Assembly (NCBI GenBank): GCA_002477545.1
Contig: DLQJ01000007.1
Location: 19,942-83,941 of the forward strand
DNA: 64,000 nucleotides
Direction: 5' to 3'
Source: Patescibacteria group bacterium UBA7435
GTDB taxonomy: Bacteria > Patescibacteriota > Minisyncoccia > Phycocordibacterales > UBA918
A program made the translations under genes and the position numbers. The notes beneath the pieces are model-generated. The model was given only the letters and a program-made list of their open reading frames with translations. It was not told the DNA's origin and ran no database searches. This document shows positions 20,194 through 43,856 of this stretch, in pieces; within the stretch, counting starts at the first letter, position 1, and each line of letters opens with the position of its first letter.

Positions 20194-21111
20194 ATGAAAA
20201 AAGAATTAACTTTTATAGGACTCGGAAGGATGGGAGCAGCAATGGCAGCAAATCTTGTTGAGCAAGACTACACAGTACACGGGTACGATGTGGACGACAA
20301 AGCGCGGTCTTCAGCAGATGTTGATGGTGTCATCGTACACAAAACACTTGAGGAGGCAGTTTCTACATTGCAGACACCTCGTACTATCTGGCTGATGCTC
20401 CCTTCAAAATATGTTGACGCTACACTCAAACAATTACGTCCTTTACTCACCTCAGGTGACACTATTATTGATGGAGGCAATAGTTTCTTTAAAGACTCAA
20501 TACACCGCCACAATGATCTCATGGCGGAGCCGATTCATTTTCTTGATTGTGGCACCTCGGGTGGTGTTAGCGGTGCACGTAATGGCGCATCTCTTATGGT
20601 TGGTGGACCAAAGGAAATTGTAAAGCAGCATGAACATATTTTTACTGCACTTGCCATAAAGGATGGGTACGGGCACGTTGGAGGTTCTGGTGCAGGACAC
20701 TTCGTAAAAATGGTACACAACGGCATTGAATACGGCATGATGGGTGCAATTGCTGAAGGAATTAATGTACTACATCATCATAAAGATGGCCTAGACTTAA
20801 ACATCAACGAAACACTCAAACCGTACCAACACGGGAGTATTATTGAAAGTAATTTAATGAACTGGATTTCTGATGCATATCACCTTGATGGGTATTTAGA
20901 AAAAATTGCCGGGGAAGTACCTACGGGAGAAACAGAGATGGAGATGGAGTATTTGATAGACCACGAAGATGTGCGGGTACTTGACGCGGCTGTACTACAA
21001 CGTAAACTGACGCGAATAGAACCCTCGTTCATTGGTACTCTTATTTCTGCAATGCGTAATCAATTTGGAGGTCATAAAATAGTAGACAAGGAGCCTGTTG
21101 ATACCGAATAA
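20194..21111 (+). CDS. gnd: 6-phosphogluconate dehydrogenase, short (YqeC/Gnd-like) form
   Basis: 'FIGLGRMGAAMAANL' Rossmann motif and 'GTSGGVSGARNG'. Confidence 0.8.
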   Translation: MKKELTFIGLGRMGAAMAANLVEQDYTVHGYDVDDKARSSADVDGVIVHKTLEEAVSTLQTPRTIWLMLPSKYVDATLKQLRPLLTSGDTIIDGGNSFFKDSIHRHNDLMAEPIHFLDCGTSGGVSGARNGASLMVGGPKEIVKQHEHIFTALAIKDGYGHVGGSGAGHFVKMVHNGIEYGMMGAIAEGINVLHHHKDGLDLNINETLKPYQHGSIIESNLMNWISDAYHLDGYLEKIAGEVPTGETEMEMEYLIDHEDVRVLDAAVLQRKLTRIEPSFIGTLISAMRNQFGGHKIVDKEPVDTE

Positions 21112-23507: not shown

Positions 23508-24307
23508 GCTTGCTCACTTAAAAACTGGCCTTCTAGTAACATTGCGATGTGTTGATCGTACATGCTGGTATGTTGTGTAAGGAATACATTGCGTAATTGT
23601 GCCTCTTTGCTCAGGAGTGTCTCAATCTCAGGATGTGATTGAAGGTACGTTCTGAGTTTCATTGGGATGCTTTCTGTTTGTGAAAATACGGTAACACCGT
23701 TTCCAAATCGTTTCCTAATTTTCGAAGCAAGTAATGTGTAATGTGTACAGCCCAATATAATGCCATCCACGGCGACGCCTTGTAATAATCGATCGTCAAT
23801 CAACGCTTCGGTAATTGCGTAAGCACCAGCTATGTTCCCATCTTCAAGTAACGGAACTAATTCAGGTGTCGCTATAGCTTCGATTTTTACATCAAATTCA
23901 TTACGCTTACCAAGCTCAAGATGATATTTACCAGAACTTACTGTCCTTTGCGTTGCGAACATAAGTACTCGTTTACAGTCACTTTCTATGACATCTTCAA
24001 TAACAGGCACAATAACACCCAATATCTTACGATCTGGATACTCCAGTGGCAAAAATTCTTCCTGTAAGCGCCGTAACGTCTCCGCAGAGGCCGTATTGCA
24101 GGCAATTACTACCAAACTACAGTCTTTGGTAAAAAGATACTCTACGCCTATTTTTGTTAGTTCATAAATCTCCTCCTCAGTACGATCACCATACGGAAGA
24201 TGTTTAGTGTCCCCATAATATTCATAGTCATACTGTGACAGTTCTTTAGCTACTGCTTTCAGCACCAGTAATCCACCCAATCCAGAATCAAAAAAACCTA
24301 TTTTCAT
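23489..24307 (-). CDS. murI: Glutamate racemase
   Basis: 'FFDSGLGGL', 'VIACNTASA' and 'LGCTHY'. Confidence 0.9.
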   Translation of the reverse strand: MKIGFFDSGLGGLLVLKAVAKELSQYDYEYYGDTKHLPYGDRTEEEIYELTKIGVEYLFTKDCSLVVIACNTASAETLRRLQEEFLPLEYPDRKILGVIVPVIEDVIESDCKRVLMFATQRTVSSGKYHLELGKRNEFDVKIEAIATPELVPLLEDGNIAGAYAITEALIDDRLLQGVAVDGIILGCTHYTLLASKIRKRFGNGVTVFSQTESIPMKLRTYLQSHPEIETLLSKEAQLRNVFLTQHTSMYDQHIAMLLEGQFLSEQAWIEKF

Positions 24308-24465
24308 AATATCTATACAGACACTATAGCAAATAGATTCTAAATTACCTCATGAAAACAATTTCTTTACATCAACAACCGAGGTCATCCGAGGATCTGA
24401 TGAAAGAACTCTTCCTTGATTATTAATGATACTCAGCACATCAACCTCAACAGAAGAACGATGCA

Positions 24466-25026
24466 CTAGTACTTGCGGATCACTCCTTTTACGATCGCTG
24501 CGATTCGCATGTCGTATTCTGGATAAATTGGTTTGTAGTTTTTGTTTGCCGGTTCGAGCCATACTTTTTTTCCATCAGTTTTAAAATATTTAAGAGTCCA
24601 TCCATCGTCAACTTCAGCTATAACGATATCTCCATCTTTAGCAGTCTGTGATCGTTCTGCAATAACCAAGTCTCCTTCATCAATATGTGCTTCAATCATC
24701 GAATCTCCTTTCACTTCCAGAATAAAGGTCTTTTCTTTCTTTGGGACAAGGTATTCTTCAATACTTAATGTGTCGAGCACTTGCGAGTCTGCTGTACTTG
24801 GGATACCAGCTTCAACAAGACCAAGTAAGGGAATTTCCCCTGCGCTCATTGCAGGGAGAATTTTACCCTGTGCATCTTTTTCCAGTATTCCAGCGTCAAT
24901 AAGCTTGTGAACAAGTTTAGAAACAGCGTTCTTTGATTTGAATCCAACGAGCTCCATAATCTCCGCATAACTTGGCATGCGTTTGTTTCGATTATAGAAT
25001 TCGAAGATTTTATCTTGGTGACTCAT
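24466..25026 (-). CDS. lexA: LexA repressor
   Basis: N-terminal winged HTH, Ala-Gly cleavage site ('VEAGIP'), and an S24 domain with 'GDSM' and a catalytic Lys. Confidence 0.9.
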   Translation of the reverse strand: MSHQDKIFEFYNRNKRMPSYAEIMELVGFKSKNAVSKLVHKLIDAGILEKDAQGKILPAMSAGEIPLLGLVEAGIPSTADSQVLDTLSIEEYLVPKKEKTFILEVKGDSMIEAHIDEGDLVIAERSQTAKDGDIVIAEVDDGWTLKYFKTDGKKVWLEPANKNYKPIYPEYDMRIAAIVKGVIRKY

Positions 25027-25059
25027 AATTAGTATTGGTAACTATAGTTCTATAGTACC

Positions 25060-25260
25060 CTATGCTCGACTAAAGAAGTTAAGACGTAGTGGACTAATAA
25101 TAAGTCGTGCCCGTTCTTCCCTTCGGATCTGTCGTAGTAATTGTCGGTGTCGTCGCGCTTCTCTTTTGTAATCTGCATGTTCAACGATCTTGCAATCGAT
25201 GATACCGTTTAGATTTTGAATCTCTTTGTTTAATGCCTTTAGATATTGTTTTTTACTCAT
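25060..25260 (-). CDS. Small basic hypothetical protein, first gene of the lexA operon
   Basis: 66-aa ORF directly downstream of the LexA-box promoter. Arg-rich C-terminus. Confidence 0.45.
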   Translation of the reverse strand: MSKKQYLKALNKEIQNLNGIIDCKIVEHADYKREARRHRQLLRQIRREERARLIISPLRLNFFSRA

Positions 25261-25295
25261 ACTATTTTTACTTATTTCCCCTCGTAATTAAATAT

Positions 25296-25324
25296 AGTAT
25301 AGGTGAACGATCGTTCACCGTCAA
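25296..25324 (-). promoter_or_regulatory. Sigma-70-type promoter (TTGACG-17 nt-TATACT) with a Cheo-type LexA box (GAACGATCGTTC) filling the spacer
   Basis: Perfect 18-bp palindrome 'ggtgaacgatcgttcacc' at 25302-25319. The -35 is at 25319-25324 and the -10 at 25296-25301 on the minus strand. Confidence 0.75.
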
Positions 25325-25370
25325 GTAATTATCTCCCCGTAAATGTGTGGACAAGGAATGGACCCTATTT

Positions 25371-25601
25371 TTAGCCAATTACAATAAATCTATCCATCAT
25401 TTTTCCATCAACGTCAATAGTTTCCTCAAACATTTCCTGAGGACGTGCAAACACTGGCTTGGGCCCTAAGTCATCAGTATCATACTCCGCTCGGTAAATC
25501 ACGAGCATCTGCATGGTCTCGCTATGATGGGCGATTGCTATTACAGTATACTCTTTCCCATTTTTGTAATGTCTGTATTTTTTTCCTGTCTCAGCCTTCA
25601 T
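25371..25601 (-). CDS. DUF1653-like small protein
   Basis: 'YRHYKNGKEY...HSET...LVIYRAEY' pattern. Confidence 0.55.
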   Translation of the reverse strand: MKAETGKKYRHYKNGKEYTVIAIAHHSETMQMLVIYRAEYDTDDLGPKPVFARPQEMFEETIDVDGKMMDRFIVIG

Positions 25602-25603
25602 AC

Positions 25604-26809
25604 TTAGTTATGCTTTGCGTGATAAATTGCATTTACTGCAAGGGATGCCAGTGCACCAATGATGAACGTCCATTCAATTGAGAAATAGAATGTTAGTGCA
25701 ACCATACCAAACAACGCAAGAGCTCGTCCGATGTGCGACGCCATCTCACGCATCACAGTAAATTCATCAACGTACCTCCCCTGCTCCCCAGACATGTCAT
25801 AAAGAATTGCACTGTATGGTGTTTTTATAAAAATCTTAGTGATGTTGTGATACAGACCCACAAAGAAAATCTGGGTTGCCGAAAGCACAAACATTTTAAT
25901 CACCCAACCAAATGCATAAAGAATGCTCCCCCGTTTAAGCGTCTGCACTTTACTGTGTCCCTTCCCGTCAAGATACTTCCCGACAAACAACTGTACAAAG
26001 ATAGTAACTCCAACAATCACCGTGGAGAGTGCCCCAATCTCAAGCATGTTTCCGTTGAGTACTTCGTATAGAAAAATAGGCCATGCAATAAGATTAACCA
26101 CTACCTCAGCACCGTTTGCCATTTCTCCCACTAATACGTTACGGAAATCAGGAGAAAAGAGATGTTGTGTTGTTTCTTTATACGTCCACGTAAACTGCTC
26201 CTCTACTGCGGGAACAAACAAATACGACACTCCGGCTGCGGCAAGAAGTACGACACCAATAGCAAAGAGCACTTCGTAGCCACTGTTTTGTACAATATAC
26301 CCGGCCAAAATTGGCCCAAGCATTCCCATGAATGCAATAGTCGCAAACATAAGTGAGACGTCTCTTCCCCGCTCCCCTCCTTTTGTAAAGGCGGTAAAAT
26401 CAACATGATACGGCACCCAGTGAAAGACACGAAACCCAACCATGGCTATAACCAGAGGTGCGAGCAAATGCCAAATATTTATTCCATCAGCAAAAAAGAG
26501 GATGATGAATTGAACAACCGAGAACACGGCACCTAGTGCAAGTGTTTTACTAAAACCAAGTATATTGGTGATTCGCATTCCAGGAACCAAAAATAAAGCA
26601 TATCCAATAGAGACAGCAGCATAGAATAGACCCACGATCCAAAATTCTAAACCAGTAGTCTCATACAAAAAGATAGGGACAAACATCCCCATCATGGCGG
26701 TTGCGAGACCTTGTATCAGACGCTTGGAGATAAATAACTGCAAAAAACCACCTTTTCGCTGTGTTCCTCTTTGGACAAGTCGGGAAAGTACTACCGTAAT
26801 TCGTTCCAT
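25604..26809 (-). CDS. MFS transporter
   Basis: 12-TM hydrophobic profile, 401 aa. Confidence 0.65.
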   Translation of the reverse strand: MERITVVLSRLVQRGTQRKGGFLQLFISKRLIQGLATAMMGMFVPIFLYETTGLEFWIVGLFYAAVSIGYALFLVPGMRITNILGFSKTLALGAVFSVVQFIILFFADGINIWHLLAPLVIAMVGFRVFHWVPYHVDFTAFTKGGERGRDVSLMFATIAFMGMLGPILAGYIVQNSGYEVLFAIGVVLLAAAGVSYLFVPAVEEQFTWTYKETTQHLFSPDFRNVLVGEMANGAEVVVNLIAWPIFLYEVLNGNMLEIGALSTVIVGVTIFVQLFVGKYLDGKGHSKVQTLKRGSILYAFGWVIKMFVLSATQIFFVGLYHNITKIFIKTPYSAILYDMSGEQGRYVDEFTVMREMASHIGRALALFGMVALTFYFSIEWTFIIGALASLAVNAIYHAKHN

Positions 26810-27888: not shown

Positions 27889-28287
27889 CTAGAGCGTTGG
27901 TGTTCCGGGTATTGTGGGTACTGTGGTGGTCCCAAACAATCCTCCTGCGATGATATTCACAATTCCCCAAATGGAAACCATGAGCACAAAGCCGATGATG
28001 GCATATGTTATTAGTTGTTTCCCTTTCTCTCGTTCTGCCTCATTTCCTCCACCAAGGATGAAGTACTTAAACATTCCGAACACAAATACCAACAGGGCAA
28101 GTGTGAATAATAACGGGATGAGAATGTTATCTATAAAACCTCCGATGTTTGTAAAAAATGTATCTACCTCTCCAAAGTATTGTTGTGCAGATGTCACTAT
28201 TGGCATTAACAGGATCAACATTGCATACTTCCCTATTGTTTTCTGAGCTTTATTCATATTAGTTATATTACCGTATACAGCTATCAT
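27889..28287 (-). CDS. VirB2/TrbC-like pilin-family small membrane protein (paralog 1)
   Basis: Signal peptide, TM1, charged loop 'GGGNEAEREKGKQ' and TM2 'GFVLMVSIWGIVNIIAGGLF'. Near-identical core to the next gene. Confidence 0.45.
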   Translation of the reverse strand: MIAVYGNITNMNKAQKTIGKYAMLILLMPIVTSAQQYFGEVDTFFTNIGGFIDNILIPLLFTLALLVFVFGMFKYFILGGGNEAEREKGKQLITYAIIGFVLMVSIWGIVNIIAGGLFGTTTVPTIPGTPTL

Positions 28288-28290
28288 TAT

Positions 28291-28662
28291 CTACGCACCA
28301 ATATCAGGTCCTGATGGAGTGTTTGGCGGTGTGTTATCAGGAAACAATCCTCCTGCGATAATATTTACAATTCCCCAAATAGAAACCATAAGAACAAAAC
28401 CAACTATCGCATACATCACTAGTTGCTTTCCTTCTTCTCGAGCTGACTCATTACCTCCGCCAAGAATAAAGTACTTGAATACGCCATATAGGAAAACCAG
28501 TAGTGCTATGGCAAAAATAAGCGGAATAAGTACTGAATTAATAAACCCGCTTATGTTATTAAAAAATGTATCTACCGTTCCAAACTGAGCTAATGCCATA
28601 ACTGGCAGAGCAAAGAGACTTCCAACAATTGCTATTCTTTTCATATACACAGTATATAGCAC
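28291..28662 (-). CDS. VirB2/TrbC-like pilin-family small membrane protein (paralog 2)
   Basis: Same architecture. The shared block 'LLVF.YG.FKYFILGGGNE.AREEGKQL..YAI.GFVLMVSIWGIVNIIAGGLF' is also similar at the DNA level. Confidence 0.45.
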   Translation of the reverse strand: MLYTVYMKRIAIVGSLFALPVMALAQFGTVDTFFNNISGFINSVLIPLIFAIALLVFLYGVFKYFILGGGNESAREEGKQLVMYAIVGFVLMVSIWGIVNIIAGGLFPDNTPPNTPSGPDIGA

Positions 28663-42070: not shown

Positions 42071-42449
42071 TGTTTTGTCCTTTCTTCTATATTCTCACTA
42101 TACACCCAGCATAAGCACTTATCATCTGTATTTTTAAAAAACAGTGGATTACTAAACAAAAACAAAAGCGGACCTGTGGCCCGCTTTTTTGAATCAGAAT
42201 GTCCACCAACCGGAGTTCTGCTCATTTTTCTTTCGCTCTGTTCGTTGTTTTTTCCACACAAGAAAGAGCAAATATGCAACAAATGGAAATATTGATAAAA
42301 CGAAAATCCAAGATAAGAATTGATTCACTACTACCCCCCCCTTTTTTTAGGTTATTGTATCTCTATAAGAAATAATACACATATTTTCCACAAAATCCAT
42401 ACAATAGTCGATTCTCAAATACATGGTAAAATAGCTTCATAATAAATTT

Positions 42450-43856
42450 ATGGCTGACACATCCAAACCATTGGCTCGAAGCCTCCGTACACCGCCTCAC
42501 AATATTGAAGCTGAAAAAGCGCTTATTGGTGCAATCATGCTCAAACCTGAGGTAATGCATGATGTGTCAGTGAATATTTATCCTGAGAGTTTCTATGCTG
42601 ATAAACACAGTCAGATCTTTCAAGCGATTCTTACCATCTTTACCAAAGGTGATCCTATCGATCTTCTTTCGGTAACCACACGTCTGAAGTCTGAAGGGCA
42701 ACTTGACCGTGTTGGTGGAGCAACATACATTAACGAGCTTGTGGACACTGTACCTGCTGCTGGTAACGCTTCATACTATATGGAGCTCGTGCAAGCAAAA
42801 GCAGTTCTTCGGGGTCTTATTCACGCTGCAGACGAGATTGCTGAGATGAGTTACGCAGATCCTGAAAATCTTGACGAAACACTTGATCAGGCAGAAAAGA
42901 AAGTCTATGGAGTAACCAACTCTACCTCAACAGGAAAATTCAAGACCATCGGTAACTCACTTACCGAAGCCTGGGAACGATTTGAATACCTTAGTGCAAA
43001 CCAAGACGAAAAACGTGGAGTGCCTACAGGTTTCCATGCGCTTGATAATGTACTGGCCGGTTTCCAAAAATCTGACCTTATCATTCTTGCAGCGCGTCCA
43101 TCTATGGGTAAAACAACCTTCGCCTTAGACCTTGCGCGTAATGCAGCACTTGAGTACGGAAAGTCAGTTGGTATCTTTTCATTGGAGATGAGTGATCAAC
43201 AGTTGGTTGACCGTATGCTTGCCGCTGACGCGGGAGTAGACTCATGGAAACTGCGTACCGGTAAACTCAATACTGACGCTGAATTCGAAGCAGTACAAGC
43301 ATCAATGGCTAAGCTTTCTGACGCACGCATTCATATTGATGATCAGCCAGGGACAAACATTCTTAAGATGCGTTCTGCGGCACGGCGATTGAAGAACGAG
43401 CATGGTCTTGATCTTCTTATTGTGGACTACCTCCAACTTATGAGTCCTACCAACTCAAAAGCAAGTGACTCGATGACACAACAGGTGACAGAAATTTCTC
43501 GTGCACTGAAGCTTCTTGCTCGTGAACTTGATGTACCGGTGCTCGCACTCTCACAGCTGTCGCGTGCGGTTGAACAACGTGGTGGAAAGCCGAGATTGTC
43601 AGACCTTCGTGACTCAGGGTCTATTGAGCAGGATGCTGACGTGGTGATGTTTATTCACCGCGAGGACAAAGCAAACAGAGACGTTGAATCAGAACGACCA
43701 AACATCGCAGAAATCATGGTTGAGAAACACCGTAATGGTCCAGTTGGGTCAGCTGAGCTATACTTCGACGGTCAGCATGTACGCTTCCTTAATCTGGACA
43801 CGAACCATTCAAGTAATGCGATAGAGCATGCAACAGCACAGGATGATGACTTCTAA
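42450..43856 (+). CDS. dnaB: Replicative DNA helicase
   Basis: 'PPHNIEAEKALIGAIML' N-terminus, Walker A 'ARPSMGKTT' and 'SGSIEQDADVVMF'. Confidence 0.9.
   Translation: MADTSKPLARSLRTPPHNIEAEKALIGAIMLKPEVMHDVSVNIYPESFYADKHSQIFQAILTIFTKGDPIDLLSVTTRLKSEGQLDRVGGATYINELVDTVPAAGNASYYMELVQAKAVLRGLIHAADEIAEMSYADPENLDETLDQAEKKVYGVTNSTSTGKFKTIGNSLTEAWERFEYLSANQDEKRGVPTGFHALDNVLAGFQKSDLIILAARPSMGKTTFALDLARNAALEYGKSVGIFSLEMSDQQLVDRMLAADAGVDSWKLRTGKLNTDAEFEAVQASMAKLSDARIHIDDQPGTNILKMRSAARRLKNEHGLDLLIVDYLQLMSPTNSKASDSMTQQVTEISRALKLLARELDVPVLALSQLSRAVEQRGGKPRLSDLRDSGSIEQDADVVMFIHREDKANRDVESERPNIAEIMVEKHRNGPVGSAELYFDGQHVRFLNLDTNHSSNAIEHATAQDDDF

Follow-up and report, generated by a model that had tools for sequence, protein, structure and literature searches.

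GAAC-N4-GTTC is the established LexA-binding motif of Gram-positive bacteria, both Firmicutes and Actinobacteria (PMC3323433; PMC11442139), and a LexA-binding motif for the Patescibacteria was reported in 2017 (Sanchez-Osuna, Barbe and Erill, as cited in PMC8565304). A literature search for LexA together with Saccharibacteria or the candidate phyla radiation (CPR) yielded nothing relevant. Here we describe a lexA locus of the Patescibacteria group bacterium UBA7435, located in a 64,000-nucleotide (nt) stretch of contig DLQJ01000007.1 (hereafter, the window). It consists of a promoter with a GAAC-N4-GTTC palindrome in its spacer, a small open reading frame (ORF) for a basic protein of 66 amino acids (aa), and lexA. 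Similar to this locus, in Bacillus subtilis, Staphylococcus aureus, and Mycobacterium tuberculosis GAAC-N4-GTTC overlaps the lexA promoter (PMC11442139, PMC3323433); the repressor is of the winged-helix/S24 type and carries both the Ala-Gly site and the Ser/Lys dyad, and error-prone polymerases are co-controlled. The differences are that the operator flanks are GT-GAAC...GTTC-AC here (TA...TA in a sister clade) and C-GAAC...GTTC-G in the Gram-positive loci; that in most loci considered here the operator exactly fills the spacer between the -35 and -10 hexamers; and that lexA is the second of two operon genes and encodes a short LexA (186 aa).

The regulatory architecture, that is, an autoregulated lexA operon with the LexA operator inside the promoter spacer, is very likely, judging from the comparison of sequences. 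It is ordinary SOS wiring and not a new design, as LexA regulation has been studied before in this clade and the design was probably described earlier for the superphylum, and LexA autoregulation via GAAC-N4-GTTC is textbook knowledge; the parts of interest are the partner gene and a DnaA box at a fixed position. For these we suggest, with a confidence just short of even, that the 66-aa protein founds an undescribed, CPR-confined family integral to the SOS switch, either as a LexA/RecA accessory factor or as a soluble replication/division checkpoint effector, and that the operon is wired to both LexA and DnaA sensors.

Promoter, operator, and the lexA gene

The minus strand of the window at positions 25324–25296 reads TTGACG, GTGAACGATCGTTCACC (25318–25302, 17 nt), and TATACT, as noted in the initial annotation, and this pair of hexamers is the top-ranked promoter-like match of the region 24300–25700 in a consensus scan (10 of 12 positions, 17-nt spacer). 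The initial annotation also treated the 17-nt spacer as a perfect palindrome. The GAAC-N4-GTTC palindrome does lie within the spacer (core GAACGATCGTTC, 25305–25316), but the spacer as a whole, at 17 nt, cannot be one without a mismatch; perfect symmetry is seen in the 16-mer GTGAACGATCGTTCAC (25303–25318) and the 18-mer GGTGAACGATCGTTCACC (25302–25319), the final G of the -35 hexamer belonging to the latter as well. The first ORF downstream (25260–25060) indeed encodes the 66-aa basic protein, and lexA (25026–24466) is second.

The bare core GAACN4GTTC is present in four copies in the window, with 1.0 expected. The other three (at 21019, 33783, and 53387) were rejected as operators, being intragenic, without GT/AC flanks, and without a promoter bracket; the genes holding them encode a 6-phosphogluconate-dehydrogenase-like protein, diacylglycerol kinase, and MsrAB. 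Hence, the earlier remark that no other copy of the box occurs in the window is essentially right. Matches to the 18-mer with at most three mismatches number three, against 2.2 expected, so that only the perfect copy stands out. A single site in the window is not statistically decisive, and the proof that it is not a chance occurrence comes from conservation in other loci.

Two sets of loci were compared. The orthologous set comprises 22 loci on distinct Saccharibacteria/Patescibacteria contigs, fetched via homologues of the small protein from assemblies and genomes. The independent sample comes from a metagenome scan with the LexA alignment only, of which the best 80 loci were kept; operators were counted in the 72 LexA loci with more than 150 nt upstream, the core being sought within at most 260 nt 5' of the first gene of the operon (small ORF or lexA). 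The arrangement (C)TTGAC(G/A)-GTGAAC-N4-GTTCAC(C)-TATACT is retained in the 22 orthologous loci, while its surroundings are unalignable. GTGAAC and GTTCAC are invariant in these loci, and the central N4 is GATC, GTTC, GAAC, GAAT, GTAC, GTCC, GCTC, GACC, or GTTT. Absence of the palindrome from orthologous loci had been named in the initial annotation as a ground for giving up its LexA assignment; wherever an orthologous locus has sufficient DNA upstream, the palindrome is there. In the independent sample, GAACN4GTTC is found upstream in 63 of the 72 LexA loci, and in 52 of these 63 it lies within a TTGnnn-(16–18 nt)-TAnnnT bracket. Due to these frequencies, the operator-in-spacer arrangement is a general lexA promoter design across the CPR (Patescibacteria), not peculiar to the locus in the window.

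The outer bases of the operator change together with the recognition helix of LexA. GTGAAC...GTTCAC operators (42 of 63 loci) pair with the helix SKNAVxK(L/V), TAGAAC...GTTCTA operators (16 of 63) with SKSVV(N/H)(F/Y)W, and CTGAAC...GTTCAG operators (three loci) with SKNAVxG. The three flank classes are exemplified by loci L077, L079, and L082; L030 and L034; and L085, L092, and L099. Since the outer bases vary with the helix by which the product of the adjacent gene reads DNA, this is good evidence that LexA would bind there, and the co-variation forms a natural specificity series for LexA–DNA recognition. The extended Cheo consensus CGAACRNRYGTTYC, or CGAAC-N4-GTTCG, is not matched, the flanks being GT...AC or TA...TA instead of C...G; the operator in the window is best classed as a variant of the Gram-positive-type (Cheo) SOS box.

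A link to the SOS response beyond lexA itself is seen on a 440-kb Saccharibacteria contig (L020, 1990–3912), where an identical promoter-operator TTGACGGTGAACTATAGTTCACCTATACT heads an operon of a lexA paralogue and a Y-family polymerase. This second operon has a TTGACG-GTGAACTATAGTTCACC-TATACT promoter, a LexA-like gene of 191 aa that scores just under the LexA equivalog cut-off, and no small ORF. In L021, L026/L027, and L028 the operon order is small ORF, lexA, (umuD-like), Y-family polymerase. Conservation, co-variation with the helix, and the polymerase operon thus all bear out the identification of the palindrome as a Gram-positive/Cheo-type LexA operator in the promoter spacer of the small ORF and lexA.

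Alternatively, the palindrome might serve a regulator other than LexA, form an RNA hairpin or terminator belonging to the DUF1653 gene upstream, or have arisen by chance. Compatible with this are the single full copy in 64 kb and the possibility that RNA folds here into a 7-bp (base pair) stem closed by a 4-nt loop. However, the stem bases are invariant and never co-vary, while the loop-equivalent N4 changes; an invariant stem without compensatory changes and with a variable N4 is the signature of a protein site, not of an RNA helix. The palindrome is not followed by a T-run and is not listed by the terminator scan; on these grounds, and for lack of stem co-variation, the hairpin and terminator variants were rejected. 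Against another regulator or chance stand the bracketing of the core by -35 and -10 hexamers in most core-bearing loci of the independent sample, the association of the site with lexA over more than 80 loci with flanks that follow the LexA recognition helix, the identical site at the head of the Y-family polymerase operon, and the coincidence of the core with the known Gram-positive LexA motif (PMC3323433). Taken as a whole, a palindrome of non-LexA origin is very improbable.

The gene itself can be identified as a genuine lexA. The 186-aa protein passes the LexA equivalog cut-off of NCBIfam (TIGR00498, 135.2 bits vs. 110.95) and contains a Peptidase_S24 domain (Pfam, 3e-28); its residues 10–184 align to the E. 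coli LexA structures 7B5G and 1JHH, and the E. coli residues A84-G85, S119, and K156 have their aligned counterparts in VEA73-G74IP, GDS109M, and TLK146Y, respectively. Across 14 diverse relatives, no change is seen in A73-G74 (the Ala-Gly bond that is cleaved), in S109 (the nucleophile), or in K146. The winged helix-turn-helix region at the N-terminus is covered by the full-length LexA model and by the structure alignment, and members of the 90% cluster of this protein are named LexA in public sources.

Several observations weigh against assigning the operator and the repressor in this way. The Pfam LexA_DNA_bind score is 20.2 bits, just under the gathering score of 23.7. The exact core is missing upstream of nine of the 72 LexA loci, and a distant small-ORF locus, L023, has no GAAC box in its available 121 nt upstream. 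The classes of flanks and helices are also clades, so that the number of independent co-variation events is small. The evidence for a regulon consists of lexA itself and the polymerase operons, and in the 64-kb window a second convincing operator was not found.

If the operator is occupied as its geometry implies, a LexA dimer in the spacer would sit between both hexamers that RNA polymerase must contact, and transcription would be blocked; we infer this block from the geometry of the site and from the action of LexA elsewhere. DNA damage would activate RecA, which would stimulate self-cleavage of LexA at Ala-Gly via the Ser/Lys dyad, the residues for this reaction being in place. The derepressed promoter would then yield one transcript encoding the 66-aa protein and new LexA, and the switch would be reset. 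An input of replication status is probably added by a DnaA-type box, which lies 5' of the -35 hexamer by about one or two helical turns.

Individual loci depart from the common layout. In L023, the palindrome CTGTATTCACAATACAG occupies the upstream region (1–121) in place of the GAAC box, and a 143-nt repeat-rich spacer with TTTCAA/TTGAAA units (329–471) separates the small ORF from lexA. L013 has an insertion of about 180 nt (1825–2036) between the promoter-operator and the start of the small ORF, seen in no other locus and with no Rfam match. In L028 (2466–2503), TATACT ends 6 nt 5' of the small-ORF ATG, making the transcript leaderless or nearly so, compared with a leader of about 29 nt between the expected transcription start and the 66-aa ORF in the window. 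Most orthologues have TAGGRAAW 8–10 nt 5' of the small-ORF ATG. The genome matches are to metagenome-assembled genomes under the labels Candidatus Saccharibacteria or Patescibacteria group. Two loci of the Saccharibacteria type with typical neighbours come from metagenome-assembled genomes labelled Acidimicrobiales and Candidatus Azotimanducaceae (L009, JBLIMJ010000007.1, and L015, JBLHGD010000051.1, respectively); these labels are probably due to bin contamination. The site GAACTATAGTTA (25050–25039), considered as a second operator, was rejected as unconserved: it occurs only in the strain group of the window itself (L001–L003) and is absent from the spacers of other loci.

The 66-aa protein and its linkage to lexA

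The 66-aa protein (MSKKQYLKALNKEIQNLNG...NFFSRA) has a net charge of +10. Its homologues form 42 clusters with 53–100% identity, nearly all of 63–67 aa, and their alignment has 21 invariant positions (M1, Y6, N18, I21, D22, H38, and 15 others). An exhaustive profile search brings the family to about 300 clusters (50% identity level), all of them small proteins matching at the N-terminus; in 143 family members, with identity down to about 30%, N18, I21, D22, and H38 are invariant, and G28 and Y31 nearly so. Nucleotide changes among 17 orthologues fall predominantly in the third codon position (1590, 857, and 3722 at the first, second, and third positions), and the ratio of synonymous to non-synonymous changes is 2724:1689 in the annotated frame vs. 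290:4127 and 273:4092 out of frame. From these patterns, the small ORF is a genuine gene, conserved by purifying selection and placed below the same operator as lexA.

Similar linkage is seen from both directions. In the loci found through the small protein, an S24/LexA gene is immediately adjacent on the same strand wherever the neighbour can be identified. In the loci found through LexA, the small ORF is adjacent in 34 of 80, upstream of lexA in 28 and directly downstream in six (L039, L046, L056, L057, L067, and L069). All 34 are among the LexAs closest to that of the window (roughly at least 52% identity), and the TAGAAC clade is without the small ORF. In the reversed loci lexA comes first, with the small ORF 10–80 nt after its stop codon; the operator is still 5' of the first gene, except in L039, which has no exact core, and L067, where the contig begins inside lexA. 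The spacer between the small ORF and lexA is 33 nt in the window and ranges from an overlap to 143 nt across loci. In L044 (417–644), the operator is present and the approximately 215 nt before lexA hold only a 52-aa ORF starting with MSQAQYTALEK, apparently the small ORF in a decayed state.

The short length of the ORF, its place directly before lexA, at times overlapping it or 4–15 nt away, and the absence of any known domain could be taken to mean that it is a leader or upstream ORF that tunes lexA expression and not a functional protein. This is extremely improbable given the strong amino-acid conservation both in the close family and in the wider one, the predominance of synonymous changes in the annotated frame only, the hairpin confidently predicted for the product by AlphaFold2, and the variable distance to lexA; in the six reversed loci a leader role is impossible. 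Adjacency that survives a reversal of gene order points to a functional tie and rules out a mere leader peptide.

Structure prediction and profile searches, proposed in the initial annotation, yielded a predicted fold and no known relative. AlphaFold2 predicts a two-helix hairpin (helices 3–28 and 31–55; mean pLDDT, the predicted local distance difference test score, 81.5) followed by a tail of low confidence. With a median net charge of +8, the family is strongly basic, and its C-terminal 12 residues contain on average three aromatics vs. 0.8 per 12 residues elsewhere. No transmembrane segment is seen: the maximum Kyte–Doolittle mean over 19 residues is 0.07, the threshold being about 1.6, and only two of 143 family members exceed it. 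Pfam gives only scattered single coiled-coil-type matches over the protein and the 143 relatives, with none to LysM, SulA (PF03846), Sda, or DUF896 domains. For the 66-aa protein, searches of NCBIfam and of the PADLOC defence models found nothing; no PHROGs match had an E value below 0.02; PDB sequences, searched by profile, returned only a tag-sequence artefact (E = 0.25); Foldseek against PDB and viral predicted structures gave no matches; and tblastn against 50,697 phage records found no homologue. Hence, the protein appears to belong to a new uncharacterised family with no relative among curated families or solved structures.

Since the promoter is shared with autoregulated lexA, the 66-aa protein would be made whenever LexA is made, and this fits an accessory factor better than a toxic, tightly silenced division inhibitor. 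Our preference, held at less than even confidence, is for an accessory factor of the LexA/RecA switch, which could, e.g., act as co-repressor or modulate the binding or cleavage of LexA. It must be set against this preference that the protein has no homology to anything characterised, and that the logic of the operon is the sole argument for an accessory factor.

The initial annotation considered a division inhibitor in the role of YneA or SulA. The position of the gene, under LexA control and beside lexA, agrees with this; the absence of a transmembrane segment and of LysM and SulA domains does not, and a membrane inhibitor of the YneA/SosA type, which would need a transmembrane anchor, is excluded. 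A broader form of the idea is an SOS-induced checkpoint effector, that is, a soluble or peripheral-membrane inhibitor of division or replication initiation, equivalent in function to YneA/SosA/SulA or to Sda, and encoded in the lexA operon for no other reason than to share its single operator. The Gram-positive SOS division inhibitors SosA and YneA characteristically lie beside lexA (PMC11442139), the protein is under a LexA operator, and the DnaA-box consensus upstream of the promoter recalls B. subtilis sda. The aromatic-rich tail would suit a short membrane- or partner-binding segment, and in the clade of the window it resembles a beta-clamp motif (RLNFF and KLSLF vs. QLxLF; by our own reading only). 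However, the protein has no transmembrane helix, no LysM, SulA, or Sda domain, and no profile similarity to Sda or YnzC; the helical hydrophobic moment of its tail in the window is low (0.08–0.19); and co-transcription with autoregulated lexA would be awkward for growth arrest, unless the protein is unstable or poorly translated. A checkpoint effector is, therefore, rather unlikely, and we retain the accessory factor as the preferred role.

If the family is what we suggest, the bacterial response to DNA damage would gain a new component, in a large radiation whose members are ultra-small and mostly uncultured. The small protein is kept beside lexA, in either order, in hundreds of clusters and in genomes of about 1 Mb that shed nearly everything dispensable. 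Should it modulate LexA or RecA, the view of the SOS switch in the CPR would change; should it act at a checkpoint, these episymbiotic bacteria would have their first known effector of this kind, and a soluble one, unlike the membrane-anchored inhibitors of Gram-positives. A small number of Saccharibacteria can be cultivated, and the promoter spans no more than about 80 bp.

DnaA-box-like element and genomic context

Upstream of the -35 hexamer, the window has a DnaA-box-like element (Table 1), absent from the initial annotation, of which the part TCCACA recurs in related promoters. It is found in the same orientation 5' of the -35 hexamer in 15 of 22 orthologous promoters, the background being 0.26 per kb per strand. 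In the independent sample, it is present in 27 of the 63 core-bearing LexA loci, of which 21 carry the small ORF; in other words, it accompanies 21 of the 26 small-ORF loci with an operator core. The three bases preceding TCCACA, on which no selection was made, are T (34 of 40 non-redundant promoters), T (39 of 40), and A (32 of 40). The consensus over the 40 promoters, most of which are followed by the small ORF as well, is TTATCCACA, the canonical DnaA box, and agrees with the nine-base definition TTATCCACA or TT(A/T)TNCACA. The box ends 8–11 nt (29 promoters) or 18–21 nt (nine promoters) 5' of the -35 hexamer, the two classes being one helical turn apart. A DnaA box at such fixed positions suggests that replication status and DNA damage might be read at one promoter. 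A point to the contrary is that DnaA binding to the TTATCCACA element is deduced solely from the consensus.

In the window as a whole, the DnaA-box motif is not enriched (16 matches with at most one mismatch vs. 18.7 expected). Two TTTTCCACA motifs on the plus strand (42250–42258 and 42384–42392) lie in the 630-nt intergenic region 5' of dnaB (42450–43856), and this pair may represent DnaA-type boxes.

The gene upstream of the operon encodes a DUF1653 protein, and the neighbouring genes include, besides DUF1653, those for an MFS transporter, EVE, DoxX, T4SS_pilin, glutamate racemase, and NUDIX proteins. Two small ORFs at 27889–28662 on the minus strand match the T4SS_pilin (PF18895) genes of the identical locus L001, a hallmark of the CPR. 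Searches of the window for tRNAs and Rfam families gave nothing, and a motif scan of the window found no recA, uvrA/B, recN, ruvB, or Y-family polymerase gene.

Table 1. Coordinates of the features of the small ORF–lexA operon and its promoter region in the window.
Feature	Coordinates	Strand	Basis or remark
lexA, 186-aa S24-peptidase/LexA	24466..25026	-	TIGR00498, Peptidase_S24, structure alignment, catalytic residues
Candidate weak second site GAACTATAGTTA, 1 mismatch from operator core	25039..25050	-	Inside the 33-nt small ORF–lexA spacer, within a CTATAG-AA-CTATAG repeat
Small ORF, 66-aa basic (+10) protein, predicted helical hairpin with aromatic C-terminal tail, first operon gene	25060..25260	-	Homologues, codon statistics, AlphaFold2
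Shine-Dalgarno-like purine-rich GAGGGG (putative role), in the ~29-nt leader	25278..25283	-	17 nt 5' of ATG
-10 hexamer TATACT	25296..25301	-	(C)TATACT directly 3' of the operator in nearly all orthologous loci
Probable LexA operator, 18-bp perfect palindrome GGTGAAC-GATC-GTTCACC	25302..25319	.	Fills the 17-nt spacer; core GAAC-N4-GTTC at 25305–25316
-35 hexamer TTGACG	25319..25324	-	Sequence and consensus scan; TTGAC(G/A) in most orthologous loci
DnaA-box-like TTGTCCACA, 1 mismatch from TTATCCACA	25346..25354	-	21 nt 5' of -35; TCCACA recurrence in related promoters

Comparison with small proteins of known SOS and checkpoint systems

Precedents for very small proteins that partner LexA-like repressors are gp7 of phage GIL01, a LexA co-repressor, and Acinetobacter DdrR, which acts with UmuDAb. 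The 66-aa protein has no homologue in the 50,697 phage records or among viral predicted structures.

YnzC of B. subtilis (DUF896, PF05979; PDB 2HEP) is a protein of 77 aa that has a two-helix hairpin at its N-terminus and a flexible tail at its C-terminus; its gene belongs to the SOS-regulated yneA-yneB-ynzC operon next to lexA, and it is likewise uncharacterised in function. The sequence identity of YnzC with 2HEP was checked. Homology of the 66-aa protein to YnzC/DUF896 was rejected, as hhalign gives a probability of 0.2% and there is no DUF896 match among the 143 family members; nor is YnzC basic in the manner of the 66-aa protein. Sda of B. subtilis (PF08970) is a small helical-hairpin protein of the replication and DNA-damage checkpoint, with DnaA boxes in its promoter. 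Here, too, homology was rejected (hhalign probability 2.5%, no Pfam match); Sda acts on sporulation kinases as an inhibitor, a role of no relevance in the organisms considered here, and it is neither under a LexA operator nor linked to lexA.

YneA of B. subtilis, SosA of S. aureus, and ChiZ of M. tuberculosis share with the 66-aa protein small size, LexA control, and a position beside lexA (PMC11442139). These proteins have an N-terminal transmembrane anchor, and YneA and ChiZ also a LysM domain, whereas the 66-aa protein has neither; their genes are divergent from lexA, whereas the 66-aa gene is co-directional and lies on the lexA transcript; and they are poorly conserved, whereas the 66-aa protein is well conserved across a deep clade.

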